Below the pieces are notes generated by a model. The model worked only from the letters and a program-made list of their open reading frames with translations. It had not been told where the DNA came from and made no database searches. Of a DNA stretch of 64,000 bases, positions 8,453 to 62,875 are shown piece after piece. The DNA comes from Bdellovibrionota bacterium (GTDB taxonomy: Bacteria > Bdellovibrionota > UBA1018 > UBA923). Position numbers and translations under genes: made by a program. The DNA is taken from NCBI GenBank assembly GCA_040754655.1, contig JBFMCE010000002.1, positions 5,777-69,776 of the forward strand, in the 5' to 3' direction. Numbering within the stretch: the stretch's first letter is position 1; each line of letters opens with the position of its first letter.

Positions 8453-9298
8453 CTAATTGCCCAGGCTTTTCCGAAAAATCTTGGCGTCGCGAATGTCCAT
8501 TCGCGTTTCGGGCACACGTTCCGGATTGTACGCCGCAGGATTGCCCTCAAAACGGATCAGTTCATCAAGCACTTGTTTTGCTTTCTCTTTCTGACCTCGA
8601 TCCACGAGAACTGTTGAGTAGTAAATGACGTTAAGGGAATTGGGATATTGTTTCTTCTTTGGATCAGCATTGCAATTCTCGTAGGCCTTTCCAAGCAGAT
8701 CAAGGGCAGCGGCCTTATTGCCATCGTGGGTGATCGGAAGTTTGAAATACATCCAACCCAATGTTCTTGCGGGCCCCCAACAATCGATCTCGCGGCCTAC
8801 GACCGTCTTGCCATCGATGATCGCTTTCTTTCGCATCGCCGTTTCTGCCGCGCGTTTCAAATCCGTGCGTTCCTCGAGAACGTTGTCTACACCCGCCGCC
8901 AGACCATAACGACCGTGGTTGATCGCCAGGTAATAATGCCCTTCAGCGCGGTTGGGCTCGACCTTCAAGGCTTCTTTTGCGGCGTTCATGCCACGTTCGT
9001 GCACAGCCATCTTGGGCCTGTTTGGAGTTTCCGCCTCAGGAACAAGCATGCCTTCGTAATACAGGCAGCGTGATTCAAGGATGAAAGCCTCAAACTGCAC
9101 TTCTTTATCGCCGGCGTCTACCGCGGCATTGGCAGCACGCCTTGCCGTCGACACGCAGTTCCTGGTGGTCTCAACACCTCTTTCCCGGTCTAGAAACAAC
9201 TGCCAGGCCTGTTCATATAATTTTTTTTGCGGAGTATTGGCGAGAACGGTTGGCACAGTCACTAGAAATGTAACTATCGAAAATAGTACACGATTCAT
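8453..9298 (-). CDS. Secreted helical-repeat (TPR-like) protein
   Basis: The start is reassigned to the internal ATG (MNRVLFSIVTFLVTVPTVLA signal peptide), which has a strong SD (AGGGGGAG) 6-8 nt upstream. The track start at 9388 lacks an RBS. Confidence 0.55.
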   Translation of the reverse strand: MNRVLFSIVTFLVTVPTVLANTPQKKLYEQAWQLFLDRERGVETTRNCVSTARRAANAAVDAGDKEVQFEAFILESRCLYYEGMLVPEAETPNRPKMAVHERGMNAAKEALKVEPNRAEGHYYLAINHGRYGLAAGVDNVLEERTDLKRAAETAMRKKAIIDGKTVVGREIDCWGPARTLGWMYFKLPITHDGNKAAALDLLGKAYENCNADPKKKQYPNSLNVIYYSTVLVDRGQKEKAKQVLDELIRFEGNPAAYNPERVPETRMDIRDAKIFRKSLGN

Positions 9299-9439
9299 TG
9301 CTCCCCCTTGCTTATTAAAGCCCCTTGCCTGCAAAGCTGCGGCTCTTTTATGTGGAGCGTTAGAAGGTGGCAATACGCACCGCGTCATGGCTTTTACAAT
9401 GACGTCTTTTTAAAGACCGTTCACTTAAATAAATTAAAT

Positions 9440-12810: not shown

Positions 12811-12860
12811 AAAGCCCGGTATAACGTGGGTGATCACTTTATACCGGGCTTTCGTATTTT
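12811..12860 (+). terminator. Rho-independent terminator between the convergent OPT and OMP genes
   Basis: A 14-bp perfect stem (AAAGCCCGGTATAA / TTATACCGGGCTTT) with a 14-nt loop is followed by CGTATTTTT. Confidence 0.55.
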
Positions 12861-12956: not shown

Positions 12957-14162
12957 TTAAAACGCTTTGAATCGGATCGTGCCAGTGGCAAGCACCGCGC
13001 CCCGGAAAGATTCCCTCACTTGGCTCATGTCCATCCGTTTGGGATTCTTGATCACGTTGCTGTCGTATTCTGCCCTAGCTTGGGCACCCAAGAAAAACTT
13101 TAGGGCATCTGACCTGAATACTTCATAGTTTACGCTCCCACGAGCGCCCACGCTGTGCCCCATAAATCCTCGTGAACTGAGGCCAAGTGAGTCTGACGTA
13201 TTCTCAATCACCGTGCCGTACCCGCTATAGTCGTAGCTCACAGGATCACAATAATAAGCACCTTCGCTATACCTGTCGTAACAGGTGTGCCAGGCCACGT
13301 TTGAATAACTGACATTTCCTCTGAAACGATCGCTGTATTCGTTGTTTCTGCGCACTGCCTCTGAGCCTATGCGCAAGGTGTAATAAGCCACTGCTTCAAT
13401 AACCAAGCGCTTGTCACCGCTACGGTACTTATACTCAATCGAAACCGGCAGACGAAAACTGCGTTCCGCGATCTCGTAGCGAGTGTCAACCGTGCGCTCA
13501 AGCGTTCCGCCGCCAAAGTAGACCTCGCTGTTGTCAGCTCGCGTATTGTCTGCGCGAGAATTGTGGGCATACTCGGGCTCACCATCAATTTTGGCATAAT
13601 CAGGTTCGTAAAAAACCCCGGGTGGCACAAGCACCGCATCTGAACGCGTTTGAGAGCTCTCAAAAGAGCTTTCATAGGTGCGCTTGGTGTAGGGGTTGAT
13701 CCCTATACGGGCAAGCAATTCTTGGTCTTTCGATTTGTGCATTTTAGCCACTACGCTCACTTCGATAAGTGAAAGCTCTAAATAACGATCTGCTTCGACT
13801 CCCTTGCCGGGCAGCCCCACAATTCCCGGAAAGCCTGTAAGTTCAATTCCCCAAGTCTTGTTGAAGAAATACCGACCTTTCGCCGAGACTTCCCACTCTG
13901 CGATCGATGCTCGTTGGTCGCGTATACCAGCCATAAAGCCCATATCAATGCGCCCACTCAAACGATCTGGATCACCAATCATCAACACACCCTTAAGATC
14001 AACCACACCTCGAGTAGAACCCTCTGTGTAGCCAGAAGCGTGGTAAGTGCCGGTGCCCACTTTGGTATCAAAGATAAGATCACTGTCTGCTTGAGAGAAG
14101 GGTGCCGTCAGCACAGCGCCACAAGTGACCATCAACATGCCAAGAAGCTGCTTTGTATTCAT
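12957..14162 (-). CDS. Outer-membrane beta-barrel protein (hypothetical)
   Basis: Signal peptide MNTKQLLGMLMVTCGAVLTAPFSQA. Amphipathic beta-strands end in ...RFKAF (C-terminal Phe). Confidence 0.55.
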   Translation of the reverse strand: MNTKQLLGMLMVTCGAVLTAPFSQADSDLIFDTKVGTGTYHASGYTEGSTRGVVDLKGVLMIGDPDRLSGRIDMGFMAGIRDQRASIAEWEVSAKGRYFFNKTWGIELTGFPGIVGLPGKGVEADRYLELSLIEVSVVAKMHKSKDQELLARIGINPYTKRTYESSFESSQTRSDAVLVPPGVFYEPDYAKIDGEPEYAHNSRADNTRADNSEVYFGGGTLERTVDTRYEIAERSFRLPVSIEYKYRSGDKRLVIEAVAYYTLRIGSEAVRRNNEYSDRFRGNVSYSNVAWHTCYDRYSEGAYYCDPVSYDYSGYGTVIENTSDSLGLSSRGFMGHSVGARGSVNYEVFRSDALKFFLGAQARAEYDSNVIKNPKRMDMSQVRESFRGAVLATGTIRFKAF

Positions 14163-14272: not shown

Positions 14273-15055
14273 TCACTGAGAAGCGCGATCTTTCTTAGTC
14301 TTTTGTTCGGCCACATTACGAGCTCGTTTTGCGGCCTTTCGTTTGCCGTTTTTGCTGCCAGATACAGGTTGCTCAGCCACCGCAGTACTTGAAGTATGGA
14401 TAGCCTTGATGCCTTGAAGACCCGCTTCGAGTTGCGCGACCCTTTCGTAGAGGTCTTGCCTGGCAAGTATTTCGTCTTGCGCCTGAAGCTTTCCTTCCAA
14501 GGCTTTTACCTTTGCCTCGAGCTCGGCGATTTTCGCCATCGCCGCCTCGTGCTCTTTATTGGCTAACCTGCGTTCTTGATCGACCATATCGGCATATTCA
14601 ATTTCATCCATTTGGATATGGATGCCTGAACATTCTTCTTTCGGTATGTTTGAAACCTGGCTTTGAGCCCACTGAGCTTCCATACTGAATTTATTGCCAC
14701 GCGTAGCATTTATTTTTAAATCCACCCGCGACCTTGCAAAGATTTCATCAAAATCTCTATCCAAAAACTGAACGTGGCAGCGGTTGTCATCACCCACGAA
14801 GCGCTGCTCTAAAAGAGTCTGACCTTTCTGAGCACAAATCTTGTCATCAACGGTTTTGCCAAACAATTGTTTGGTTTCAGGGTCAAGCACTTCGACACGA
14901 TACTCAATGCAATCGCCGTTGAGGGTGGTGTACATTTTATGGCCTGACTTGTACGGCATGTTTCGAAAACCCACGGGCTTTTGACCTGCCATCACAGTTG
15001 AGGCGATCGCAAGAGTCGCACAAGCTAGAATCAAATTTTGGGTGGAAAATTTCAT
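14273..15055 (-). CDS. Secreted Cys-containing coiled-coil protein, paralog 1 of 3
   Basis: SD AAGGAG 7 nt upstream of the ATG. Signal peptide, then an N-domain with conserved Cys (NRCHVQF...), then a coiled-coil (AKIAELEAKVKALEGKLQAQ) and a Lys/Arg-rich tail. Confidence 0.65.
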   Translation of the reverse strand: MKFSTQNLILACATLAIASTVMAGQKPVGFRNMPYKSGHKMYTTLNGDCIEYRVEVLDPETKQLFGKTVDDKICAQKGQTLLEQRFVGDDNRCHVQFLDRDFDEIFARSRVDLKINATRGNKFSMEAQWAQSQVSNIPKEECSGIHIQMDEIEYADMVDQERRLANKEHEAAMAKIAELEAKVKALEGKLQAQDEILARQDLYERVAQLEAGLQGIKAIHTSSTAVAEQPVSGSKNGKRKAAKRARNVAEQKTKKDRASQ

Positions 15056-15067
15056 GGGGTTACTCCT

Positions 15068-15841
15068 TTAAGGCTTTAGCGACAAGGGTTTTAAGGAAAC
15101 AGAAGAAGTTTTGATCACAAGCTGCTGTTGGCCATCGCGCCTACGGGCGCTGCGAAGTTCAGCTTCAAGCTTTGCGATACGGCGGGCAGAACGTTTTTCT
15201 TTGGCTTTCAGCTCAGAGATCTGAGCTGAAAGGGCATCAAGTCTTGCAACGACATCAGACAAAGACTTTTCATTCTTTGAGTCTTTGACCATTTGCAGGT
15301 ATCCATTCTTACTAATAACCCAGTAACCTTTGCATTGGCTCGATTCGCCGGGATTCGTGACTTCTGAGACAGTAAGAGGTTCCCAAGAATCAATGGACGA
15401 AGAGTTTCTTGAGTAAAGTTCACGGTATTTAATTCGGTTTTCAAAACTTGAAATCAACTCGACATGGCACTGATTGCCTTCCAGTCGTTTTCGAACGATT
15501 CGGTCTTCGCGTTCTTCTTCACAGTCGTCGTTTTCCATTTGGCGATCAACTAGGATGAGGACATCAGGAGACTGGGGGTTTTGGAGATCGGCTTTTTTAG
15601 TTTCAACCCAGAGGCTATGACAACCGCCTTTCGAATCGACGAAACGCGCCGAACCTTCAAAGGTTGCAGAATCTAACGGGCTCATCAGCTCTTGCGCCTT
15701 GGCTGAGTCTTCGTAATAAGCGAGTAAAAAAACCGCTAGCGCCAGCTTCTTGAAAATCATGAAGGCTAAAAACGCCTTGCGATGCCGGGAAGCAGCCTTG
15801 ATCAAGCCTTGAATTTTACTATCGAGATTAAATTCAATCAT
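15068..15841 (-). CDS. Secreted/anchored Cys-containing coiled-coil protein, paralog 2 of 3
   Basis: Same architecture (GNQCHVELISSFENR, then coiled-coil ISELKAKEKRSARRIAKLEAELR). The ATG overlaps the upstream paralog's stop as ATGA. An alternative start at 15760 would give a classical signal peptide (MIFKKLALAVFLLAYY). Confidence 0.6.
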   Translation of the reverse strand: MIEFNLDSKIQGLIKAASRHRKAFLAFMIFKKLALAVFLLAYYEDSAKAQELMSPLDSATFEGSARFVDSKGGCHSLWVETKKADLQNPQSPDVLILVDRQMENDDCEEEREDRIVRKRLEGNQCHVELISSFENRIKYRELYSRNSSSIDSWEPLTVSEVTNPGESSQCKGYWVISKNGYLQMVKDSKNEKSLSDVVARLDALSAQISELKAKEKRSARRIAKLEAELRSARRRDGQQQLVIKTSSVSLKPLSLKP

Positions 15842-16551
15842 TTCTTTTTCGCACCCTTTTCTGAGAGCTTGCGAGAATACGGTACTTTCCTAACGGAAGC
15901 CCCGTCTTCGTAAGTCTTGCTTGCGATTATGGCCCTCGCCTTCAACAAAAGATCAGTTCGATCATCTTCAAGTTGCTGCAAGCGCGTGAGTGCTTCGTTT
16001 GTAGCGCCACCCCTCATCGATCCATTCTGATCAGCGTTCTCAATGGTCTTTCTTACATCATTGATGTCAGTATCGATTTGGGCGAGCCTCGCAATTTGCT
16101 CATAGGTGTCGTAGATCGAGGCATCTAGGGTAAAGATGCCATCGCAGACGCTCTTGTTCATAAAACTGATCGGACCAACGTGTTCCCACTCTAAAGGAGA
16201 ACTAAACGCAGAAAGATGCTGCAATTGGTCCGGCCTGAAACTTTCAAGTAAACCTCGGATAGAGTACATTTGACACTTTTCATTTTCGACCCTGTATTGA
16301 ACTAGGTACCGAACAGAAATAGAGTCGCAGGCCGAGCCCTTATCTACCCTGCCTGCCAGTTCGTCGTTTTTCTCGGCATCCTTCCTGATCTCGTAGCTGA
16401 CACAAAGACCTGTATCCGTCTTGCTGTGGATTCTAGTGCCATTGTCATACCTTTGAAACAACGACTCAGACTCAGATTCACCTTGAGCGGTATCAATCAA
16501 TATTATTGATAGAAGGGCCATTCCAATCGCCCGATAAGCGTTTTTTTTCAT
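15838..16551 (-). CDS. Secreted Cys-containing coiled-coil protein, paralog 3 of 3
   Basis: The start is reassigned to MKKNAYRAIGMALLSIILIDTAQG (signal peptide). It has the NEKCQMYSIRGLLESF motif and a C-terminal coiled-coil. Confidence 0.6.
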   Translation of the reverse strand: MKKNAYRAIGMALLSIILIDTAQGESESESLFQRYDNGTRIHSKTDTGLCVSYEIRKDAEKNDELAGRVDKGSACDSISVRYLVQYRVENEKCQMYSIRGLLESFRPDQLQHLSAFSSPLEWEHVGPISFMNKSVCDGIFTLDASIYDTYEQIARLAQIDTDINDVRKTIENADQNGSMRGGATNEALTRLQQLEDDRTDLLLKARAIIASKTYEDGASVRKVPYSRKLSEKGAKKK

Positions 16552-16964
16552 TTCATCTCTCTCTATAAAGAGAGATAACTGCAACCTTGGTACCAGCAAA
16601 AACACAACCTAAGTCATTGAAACCATTCGGTGATGTAGGTCTGACACACCCTAAAAACATTGTTCAATGTAAACGCCTTCGACACCCCGAGAGAGCCTCT
16701 TTCGCTATTTAGGATAGTTCCTGTACCGCCACCCGTGGGTGGTGAGTCTCAAAACTTATCGGTTATTTTCTTTTTGCCCAAGCTGACGAAAGTTTCTTAT
16801 CGAGAGTTATGAGTTCAAGATTCAGTTCGTTCGCCAGCCAGAAATAGCTAGCATTTTGCTTATGGAAAGTAGGCACTTTTTTCCTCTCTCATACGGCCAA
16901 ATACGCAAACGTACTCAAGTTATCTCACCCCCCAGCCGAAACGAGTGTTGAGAGAGAATAAATC

Positions 16965-19083: not shown

Positions 19084-19380
19084 TCACCTGGGATGAACCA
19101 ATCGATAAACGATTGCACCAAGCCTATCGGCAATAGAAAACACTTCTTTCTGATCAAGGATTTGCAGAATACTTTGAGTCTCTCTGAGTGACCCCAACGC
19201 AATGGCATAAAACCTTCTTTGTTCAGGTTGAGTCGTTTTTGCAGAACCTTCGCTGAGATTTAAAACCACACTCAAGCTTGCCCGATCAAGTTGGTCTTTC
19301 AGATGGCGTTTTGCTTTCAACTTCTCACATTGCTTGTAGAGCGTAAGCGCTAATTCATAGGCTTGAAAATTTTTGAGCAT
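19084..19380 (-). CDS. Four-helix-bundle protein (23S rRNA intervening-sequence protein / Avd-like family)
   Basis: Family pattern FQAYELAL.LY......K..L.DQL.RAS.SVVLNL.EGSAK......F..IA.GS..E. The ATG sits with AAGGAGG inside the intergenic inverted repeat. Confidence 0.75.
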   Translation of the reverse strand: MLKNFQAYELALTLYKQCEKLKAKRHLKDQLDRASLSVVLNLSEGSAKTTQPEQRRFYAIALGSLRETQSILQILDQKEVFSIADRLGAIVYRLVHPR

Positions 19381-19467: not shown

Positions 19468-19785
19468 ATGATTCAAAATTTTCAAGCCTATGAATTGGCA
19501 TTACAACTCTACCGCAAGGTTGAGACGATCGAATTAAAACACCATCTGAAAGACCAACTCCTGAGAGCAAGTCAGAGTGTCGTGCTTAATCTTGCAGAAG
19601 GTTCCGCAAAACCGACTTGGAAAGACAAAACAAGGTTTTATGCCATTGCGTTTGGATCAATGAGAGAAGTTCAAGCCGTGTTTGATCTCATCTTGTTAGA
19701 AGATGCTGAAACACTAAAACTTGCTGATCGTATTGCAGCTTGTCTTTACCGTCTCACTTACCGCAACCGGCCACCGGATCGGTGA
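19468..19785 (+). CDS. Four-helix-bundle protein (23S rRNA IVS / Avd-like family), diverged paralog
   Basis: About 55% identical to the divergent neighbour, with the same family pattern. SD AAGGAGG 8 nt upstream. Confidence 0.75.
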   Translation: MIQNFQAYELALQLYRKVETIELKHHLKDQLLRASQSVVLNLAEGSAKPTWKDKTRFYAIAFGSMREVQAVFDLILLEDAETLKLADRIAACLYRLTYRNRPPDR

Positions 19786-61752: not shown

Positions 61753-61962
61753 ATGAATAAGACCGGTCAAAAACAAACAGGCGTCGATGCGAGGTCGCTG
61801 AAACAAGCGGCCCACGATCTAGGTTCGCCTGTCGCCGCGCTCAAGATGCTTTGCAAAAACGCGCGCGCCCTGACCGATGAAGAAAGGCAGATTCTCCAGG
61901 GTTCAATTGAAAGAATTGAGATCGTGGCGAGGAAACTGAGCGAATATGCGAAAAACAAATAA
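61753..61962 (+). CDS. Small ORF with a histidine-kinase H-box-like motif (standalone DHp-like peptide?)
   Basis: AAHDLGSPVAALKML resembles the HisKA phospho-His helix. 69 aa, overlapping the next gene by 17 nt. It may not be expressed. Confidence 0.3.
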   Translation: MNKTGQKQTGVDARSLKQAAHDLGSPVAALKMLCKNARALTDEERQILQGSIERIEIVARKLSEYAKNK

Positions 61963-62875
61963 ATTGATTCTTTTTTTCCTGGCTCTCCTCCTTCTTGGCC
62001 AGTCCCTGGCTGCTTCAGAAGAAGGTCTGGGTGGGAATGCCGCTACCGATACTGAAGCAAGCACGCTGCTGAATGGTTCGATCGAGCACATTACTGAGGC
62101 CCTTCTGGGACGAAGGTATGTAGGGGGCCCCTTGGGCGAAGGTTCTTCGGGCCTTCACGACAACGACCCACGGTACAGGTTGGACCAATTTGATTGCACC
62201 ACCTTTGTTGAGACCGTTCTTGCGCTCTCGCTTTCAAAGAGCCTTGAACAGTTCACGGTCAATATGGATCGTATTCGCTATAAAAATGGGGATGTCAGTT
62301 TCTTGAGCCGCAATCACTTTCCTAGCCTTGACTGGATTCCGAACAACTCATGGCTGCTTGAAGACATCACCCCGAACTTTCTCGCCGAGACTGAAGTAAG
62401 GCTCGCCAGAGCCGTGATCGACAAGGCGGCCTGGGTATTAAGCCTGACTTCAAAAGAGATCACGCGCCCTGATTTGAATGATGAGCAAAAACAAGCGCTC
62501 GCCAAGCAACTACACGCCGAGGCAAAAAACTTTTCACCTCAAACTATCTCGATCGCTTATTTGCCTGTTGAAGCTCTTGAGCAAAACCCCGCGGTACTGT
62601 CAAAAATCCCGTCAGGTTCAATCTTCAACATTGTTCGAGAAAACTACAAGCCCGGCGCCACGGCAATGAATGTTTCGCACCAAGGATTTGTGATTCAACA
62701 ACGCGGGGTCACCCTTATTCGTCATGCATCTGTCGGCACCGCTGTGAAAGACGATGTTTTATTGCCCTATTTGGTCGAGCAGAAAAAGAAAAAACCAAGC
62801 GTCGTGGGAATCAACTTGCTCTTTGTCAGCGAAAAATCCAGATCAGGCCCACTGCGCACGACCAAAGCCCCATAA
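61946..62875 (+). CDS. DUF1460-like (papain/NlpC-like fold) secreted protein, paralog of 16965-17975
   Basis: Signal peptide. Shares the motifs RYVGGPLGEG, FDCTTFVETVLALS, IRYKNGDVSFLSRNHF and DWIPNN with the other paralog. Confidence 0.6.
   Translation: MRKTNKLILFFLALLLLGQSLAASEEGLGGNAATDTEASTLLNGSIEHITEALLGRRYVGGPLGEGSSGLHDNDPRYRLDQFDCTTFVETVLALSLSKSLEQFTVNMDRIRYKNGDVSFLSRNHFPSLDWIPNNSWLLEDITPNFLAETEVRLARAVIDKAAWVLSLTSKEITRPDLNDEQKQALAKQLHAEAKNFSPQTISIAYLPVEALEQNPAVLSKIPSGSIFNIVRENYKPGATAMNVSHQGFVIQQRGVTLIRHASVGTAVKDDVLLPYLVEQKKKKPSVVGINLLFVSEKSRSGPLRTTKAP

Follow-up and report, generated by a model that had tools for sequence, protein, structure and literature searches.

A tandem triplet of four-cysteine exported proteins, probably paralogous, encoded with a putative outer-membrane barrel protein in a Bdellovibrionota genome

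Among stalked proteins of the bacterial envelope, SadB of Salmonella is a trimeric inner-membrane lipoprotein encoded together with the trimeric autotransporter SadA (PMC3953254), and Braun's lipoprotein Lpp and the SlpA/OmpM-type proteins are coiled-coil outer-membrane connectors, SlpA/OmpM combining a β-barrel, a coiled-coil stalk and an SLH domain (PMC9388160). Here, we describe a locus reminiscent of these systems in a metagenome-assembled genome (MAG) of Bdellovibrionota (GCA_040754655.1), within a stretch of 64,000 nucleotides hereafter called the window (contig JBFMCE010000002.1, positions 5,777 to 69,776). It consists of three consecutive genes, P3, P2 and P1, whose products are predicted to be exported by the Sec pathway, and of a following gene for a 401-residue protein resembling outer-membrane proteins (OMP-like protein). 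The reading that we favor, and to which we would give an even chance, is that of a lineage-restricted envelope module in which three diverged, disulfide-locked exported paralogues oligomerize through their helices and work with the OMP-like protein.

Like SadB, the triplet proteins would be small envelope proteins combining a coiled coil with an all-β head, whose operon also encodes an outer-membrane protein, which in the case of SadB is the one that it assists (PMC3953254). SadB (4c47) is also found, along with other MATH/TRAF-type β domains, in the list of Foldseek matches of the P1 model, with E-values of 3-4 and template modeling scores (TM-scores) of 0.17-0.20 which are not significant. 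Unlike SadB, however, the triplet proteins carry the head first and the helix last, a reversed order in which no MATH-like sandwich follows an N-terminal coiled coil, and they have no lipobox, the only cysteine ahead of a cleavage site being C12 of P1, which lies within the hydrophobic core, at too short a distance from the N-terminus. Moreover, they share no sequence similarity with SadB, and no autotransporter anchor was detected in the 401-residue protein, which matches no Pfam or NCBIfam family. With Lpp and SlpA/OmpM, the triplet would have in common a helical stalk associated with an outer-membrane β protein and charged ends that could contact the wall or the membrane. In contrast to these proteins, stalk and presumed barrel have separate genes, only the triplet has a Cys-rich β head, and we found no SLH domain, no lipobox, no Pfam or NCBIfam match and no evidence of peptidoglycan attachment in the triplet. 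The likeness to the known stalked systems is hence one of analogy only, every membership feature of these systems that we tested being absent.

P1, P2 and P3 have a common architecture consisting, in this order, of a signal sequence, an N-terminal domain (N-domain) with four cysteines, a helical C-terminal region and a basic tail. The signal sequences, which we assigned by reading the protein sequences, are canonical in P1 (residues 1-24, MKFSTQNLILACATLAIASTVMA, cleaved before GQ) and P3 (residues 1-24, MKKNAYRAIGMALLSIILIDTAQG, cleaved before ES). In P2, the hydrophobic core LALAVFLLAYY (signal region residues 28-49) is canonical as well and leads to AKA↓Q, and 27 additional residues lie ahead of it if the start coupled through the ATGA overlap is used; this N-terminus may function either as a signal peptide or as a signal anchor. 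The three sites are of the signal peptidase I type (VMA↓G in P1, AKA↓Q in P2 and AQG↓E in P3) and, as in the 401-residue protein, the Sec-type N-termini show small residues at positions -3 and -1 and precede no further hydrophobic segment.

An earlier note on this DNA, made from the letters alone, had recognized this architecture and a shared motif around one cysteine, with two to four cysteines per N-domain; the motif stands (N/E-x-C-H/Q-V/M), and the count proves to be exactly four per mature protein, all within the N-terminal ~130 residues (positions 49, 74, 93 and 142 in P1; 74, 107, 125 and 170 in P2; 50, 75, 93 and 136 in P3). The intervals between them are concordant in P1, P2 and P3 (25/33/25 for the first, 19/18/18 for the second and 49/45/43 for the third), to an extent which random placement would produce in about 1 case in 10,000 (~1e-4). 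A MAFFT alignment of the three proteins brings the four cysteines, one Trp and two Gly into register, and the contexts G-x-C, N/E-x-C-H/Q-V/M and C-x-G-I/Y recur collinearly in all three. Regarding the C-terminal region, a simple heptad scorer gave no discrimination, and heptads were therefore judged by eye. P1 has a long helix (residues ~151-223) and then a Lys/Arg-rich tail, and P2 a heptad-repeat helix (residues ~190-235) and then a basic tail, both with heptad patterns. In P3, also read by eye, two short amphipathic helices are separated by a Gly-rich loop, and the tail ends with KGAKKK. The C-terminal coiled coil initially ascribed to the three proteins is consequently retained for P1 and P2 and not for P3. 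The C-terminal 30 residues of all three proteins are strongly basic, with isoelectric points of 10.1-11.6.

From their cysteine framework, identical architecture and tandem coupling, we consider that P1, P2 and P3 are probably, although not provenly, of common descent. Paralogy, which had been put forward from the start, has to rest on framework, architecture and adjacency because similarity vanishes once the cysteines are masked: the semi-global sum-of-pairs score of the three N-domains stands above that of shuffled sequences at z = 4.2 and falls to z = -0.7 upon masking, i.e., to chance level outside the framework. Pairwise BLASTP is weak (E-values of 0.002 for P1-P2, 0.21 for P2-P3 and 1.7 for P1-P3), and hidden Markov models (HMMs) built by leaving one protein out ranked the third member first among the non-members in two of the three trials, at non-significant E-values of 0.1-0.3, and missed it otherwise. 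These figures are what one would expect if the genes were unrelated and had come by their similar sizes, four cysteines and helical C-termini by coincidence. Such a coincidence would have to extend to the cysteine spacing, to the collinear contexts including the Trp, to an identical domain order in genes that are adjacent and coupled, and to a three-sequence alignment that yields a coherent structure model, and we regard it as distinctly unlikely. Proteins that preserve their cysteine framework and diverge elsewhere are familiar among fast-evolving disulfide-rich secreted proteins. Within the window, no further copies of the triplet genes were found.

Structure models were obtained with AlphaFold2 (AF2). 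The N-domain of P3 was predicted as an all-β domain of nine strands, with a predicted local distance difference test score (pLDDT) of 78.7 and a predicted TM-score (pTM) of 0.71. In the model of mature P1 (pLDDT 62.7), the strands follow the same order as in the P3 head and are continued by a 73-residue helix (mature residues 127-199), and the cysteines of both models occupy equivalent places relative to the strands. Foldseek returned no significant match for the full P1 model against the PDB (best E-value 1.1) nor for the P3 N-domain model (best E-values 0.38 against the PDB and 0.19 against BFVD, none ≤0.1), and TM-scores were <0.35 among the matches listed in all searches. MATH/TRAF/SadB and FABP-type folds recur in these lists without significance and may serve as a lead only.

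The search for relatives by sequence was likewise fruitless. In word-indexed searches covering 5.8 billion protein clusters, each of the queries P1, P2 and P3 retrieved itself only, and all four proteins of the block are singleton clusters in this collection. With the N-domain profile, an exhaustive HMMER search covering 1.84 billion representatives gave no credible homologue, and no match over the N-domain of the triplet was found in Pfam-A, NCBIfam, PHROGs, PADLOC or the PDB sequences, nor any relative of the triplet profile in the viral contigs of IMG/VR. The only non-self matches of the exhaustive search were two giant Big_3_5 (PF16640) repeat proteins, which match profile positions 6-41, corresponding to a Tyr/Gly/Cys β-hairpin motif, 6-9 times each. 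We rejected homology with Big_3_5, the E-values being inflated by 6-9 near-identical repeats and the resemblance being that of a local motif; hhalign gave a probability of 36% over ~31 columns between the triplet profile and PF16640, and the triplet proteins have no PF16640 match in Pfam. Sub-threshold library matches were also discarded as coiled-coil noise in the helical C-terminal region, such as DUF7310 with 17.7 bits for a cutoff of 40. The suggestion that the triplet belongs to no Pfam family and is a novel one has hence outlived these searches, none of which, including that with the HMM, encountered a well-characterized family.

The four genes, which are all labeled 'hypothetical protein' by NCBI (locus tags AB1540_00510-00525 for MEW6055068-71), are co-oriented on the minus strand and tightly coupled, as the earlier reading of the triplet had it. 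This coupling is deduced from the 4-nt ATGA overlap between the P3 stop and the P2 ATG, from the 12-nt gap between P2 and P1, from the 110-nt spacer between P1 and the 401-residue gene, in which no convincing terminator was found and folding is no better than that of shuffled sequence, and from the fact that terminator-like hairpins occur only 3' of the OMP-like gene (12935-12916 and the inverted repeat of Table 1). A Shine-Dalgarno sequence, AAGGAG, precedes the ATG of P1, and the frame of P3 remains open beyond its likely start up to a GTG at 16605 (open reading frame 15838-16605, minus strand).

All four are real coding genes: when scored with the codon usage of the host, the annotated frame has a positive log-odds and the other five frames a negative one in each of them. 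That one or more of these frames could be annotation artefacts or decaying pseudogenes comes to mind because homologues were found nowhere and the codon score of P3 is the weakest of the genes (0.12). Against this, open frames of 237-260 codons in DNA with 46-47% GC, positive and frame-specific codon log-odds, a Shine-Dalgarno sequence and translational coupling, coherent signal peptides and cysteine framework and a confident AF2 model make such an explanation scarcely credible.

The 401-residue protein is plausibly an outer-membrane barrel. Its signal peptide ends with ...PFSQA↓DS, and the mature protein has no hydrophobic helix (maximum 19-residue hydropathy 0.76), about ten amphipathic β segments of period 2, a composition rich in Gly (9.7%), Ser (9.2%) and Tyr (6.5%), and a terminal Phe in the C-terminus ...GTIRFKAF. 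The barrel that had been assigned to this gene is in keeping with these features, while no family match, and no OMP family among them, was found in Pfam, NCBIfam, PHROGs, PADLOC or the PDB sequences, and the terminal motif is atypical. No relative was found in metagenomes, nor by tblastn in phage or plasmid collections. Of note, the only two cysteines of the mature protein lie 11 residues apart in WHTCYDRYSEGAYYCDP (residues ~292-306, window 13230-13290, minus strand), which suggests a disulfide-closed loop.

In two relatives, L001 (JBBRLF010000165.1) and L003, the order of the BstC-like, TPR, OPT, AmiA-like and APH-kinase genes is kept with amino acid identities of 34-71% (56-71% without the BstC-like gene), and OPT directly adjoins the AmiA-like gene with a gap of ~130-400 bp. 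Because these two syntenic relatives lack both the OMP-like gene and the triplet, the four genes represent one lineage-specific indel of ~4 kb, gained or lost together, and this joint absence ties them functionally better than their shared orientation alone. Among the OPT-anchored loci from genomes and metagenomes, none carries the block; in one of them, L002, there is no synteny downstream of OPT.

An insertion at this site might stem from a mobile element or prophage, now degraded, whose cargo, for instance surface-modifying or exclusion proteins, was lodged between OPT and the AmiA-like gene. The presence of the block here and its absence from the same site in two relatives would agree with this origin, as would the singleton status of the four proteins and their base composition: GC is 0.46-0.47 in the triplet and 0.51 in the OMP-like gene for 0.49-0.53 in the flanking genes, and GC at third codon positions (GC3) is 0.45-0.53 in the four genes vs 0.58 ± 0.05 in 20 reference genes of the window. 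However, no integrase, transposase, tRNA or flanking direct or inverted repeats were found at the block, PHROGs and PADLOC gave no meaningful match, the searches of phages and plasmids with the OMP-like protein and of IMG/VR with the triplet profile were negative, and codon usage is host-like. We consequently judge a mobile origin very unlikely.

Several observations were made in the vicinity of the block. The L001 contig (10.7 kb) is labeled 'candidate division WWE3', yet it shares five-gene synteny with the Bdellovibrionota window and L003, at amino acid identities of 35-71% (58-71% without the BstC-like gene), and is probably a mis-binned contig. The BstC-like gene (8453-9388, minus strand) encodes a 311-residue exported protein with a sub-threshold NCBIfam match to BstC (E-value 1.8e-9, 37 bits for a cutoff of 350), a sterol transporter outer-membrane protein, and is kept in both L001 and L003. 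A second AmiA-like gene of family PF07313 is located at 61946-62875 (plus strand), its product being 34% identical to that of the copy flanking the block. Finally, a divergent pair of paralogous genes of the four-helix-bundle family 23S_rRNA_IVP (PF05635) is found at 19084-19380 (minus strand) and 19468-19785 (plus strand), in a patch of low GC (0.39-0.42).

Table 1. Position of the four-gene block, its domains, its flanks and its candidate control elements in the window
Feature	Accession or description	Position	Strand	Remark
OPT transporter	PF03169	10609-12777	+	flank of the block
Inverted repeat	18-nt arms, 94% complementary	12811-12852	not assigned	between the convergent OPT and OMP-like genes
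OMP-like protein	MEW6055068.1, 401 aa	12957-14162	-	
P1	MEW6055069.1, 260 aa	14273-15055	-	
P1 N-domain	residues 25-155	14591-14983	-	four cysteines
P2	MEW6055070.1, 257 aa	15068-15841	-	
P2 N-domain	residues 50-185	15287-15694	-	four cysteines
P3	MEW6055071.1, 237 aa	15838-16551	-	likely ATG at 16551, start as in the NCBI annotation
P3 N-domain	residues 25-148	16108-16479	-	four cysteines, predicted all-β
11-bp hairpin	palindrome UUAUCUCUCUU-UAUA-GAGAGAGAUGA	16553-16578	-	5' leader fold z = -2.4
AmiA-like amidase-like protein	PF07313	16965-17975	+	other flank; APH-family kinase next

Candidate control elements are present at both ends of the block. Upstream, the 11-bp hairpin stops 1 nt short of the P3 ATG and overlaps a purine-rich putative ribosome-binding site, GAGAGAGA; it could serve the operon as an operator or act in the control of its translation. 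Directly after the same ATG, there is an A8 run (16540-16548), perhaps a slippage site, which is the sole candidate found in the block for a feature of phase- or antigen-variable cassettes. Since no DNA-level repeats between the genes, direct or inverted, and no invertible element were found, the idea that the paralogues might be subject to switching finds no support. The inverted repeat between the OPT and OMP-like genes delimits the four-gene block on its distal side and is likely a bidirectional terminator common to both genes. An Rfam scan of the region from 12 to 18 kb gave no match.

We propose that P1, P2 and P3 would be old, heavily diverged tandem duplicates. After export by Sec, their heads would fold in the oxidizing periplasm into small all-β domains, most likely locked by two disulfides formed from the four conserved cysteines, and the C-terminal amphipathic helical stalk would be suited to homo- or hetero-oligomerization. 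The Lys/Arg-rich tail could bind an anionic surface, be it membrane lipid, lipopolysaccharide, peptidoglycan or a partner protein. As a whole, the triplet would most likely act as a complex, structural or accessory in nature, in association with the OMP-like protein inherited along with it; a function as enzymes appears unlikely for these proteins. A bolder version, in which P1, P2 and P3 assemble through their C-terminal helices into a hetero-oligomeric stalk bearing three different disulfide-locked heads of unseen fold and docked to a novel barrel, would represent a new envelope or surface appendage of a single lineage, for example a recognition or tethering device, and we hold it to be unlikely.

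Several points weigh against such an envelope module. Besides the chance-level similarity of the three proteins outside their cysteine framework and the poor recovery of the third member by leave-one-out HMMs, the helix lengths are unequal in P1, P2 and P3, which speaks against a simple 1:1:1 coiled coil, and the agreement between the two AF2 models is not independent, both being built from one three-sequence alignment. In the OMP-like protein, the third and fifth residues from the end of IRFKAF are Lys and Arg instead of the hydrophobic residues commonly seen there, and the register of this terminal motif is atypical. The co-transcription of this operon-like block is inferred only, and the triplet appears to form a novel orphan family for which no match offers a functional handle.

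Alternatively, the triplet proteins could act outside the cell, as adhesins or as factors directed against prey or competitors, which would be either released or exposed on the surface, with a dedicated exporter or anchor in the OMP-like protein, and would diverge rapidly under selection. Members of the Bdellovibrionota lineage are often predatory, the conservation of the cysteine framework while all else diverges is typical of fast-evolving secreted proteins, and the block is lineage-specific, slightly lower in GC and co-inherited with the 401-residue gene, all of which would fit such factors. However, the scans of Pfam, NCBIfam and PADLOC revealed no secretion-system component, no two-partner secretion (TPS) or autotransporter domain and no toxin or adhesin domain, and there are no orthologues with which selection could be gauged. 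An extracellular role appears to us somewhat unlikely, and the envelope module associated with the OMP-like protein remains the reading that we prefer.

The practical importance of the locus is limited, as it is a single singleton locus in one MAG, without functional handle, and such orphans are common in MAGs; it is best regarded as a well-documented orphan family that structural genomics could take up. The triplet is also an illustration of a family keeping its cysteine framework alone while the remaining sequence diverges beyond detection. If real and functional, the triplet would provide a structurally new disulfide-rich β domain and add a new case to the oligomeric envelope proteins with a stalk that are paired with a protein of the outer membrane, and this in a phylum whose lifestyle depends centrally on surface recognition.

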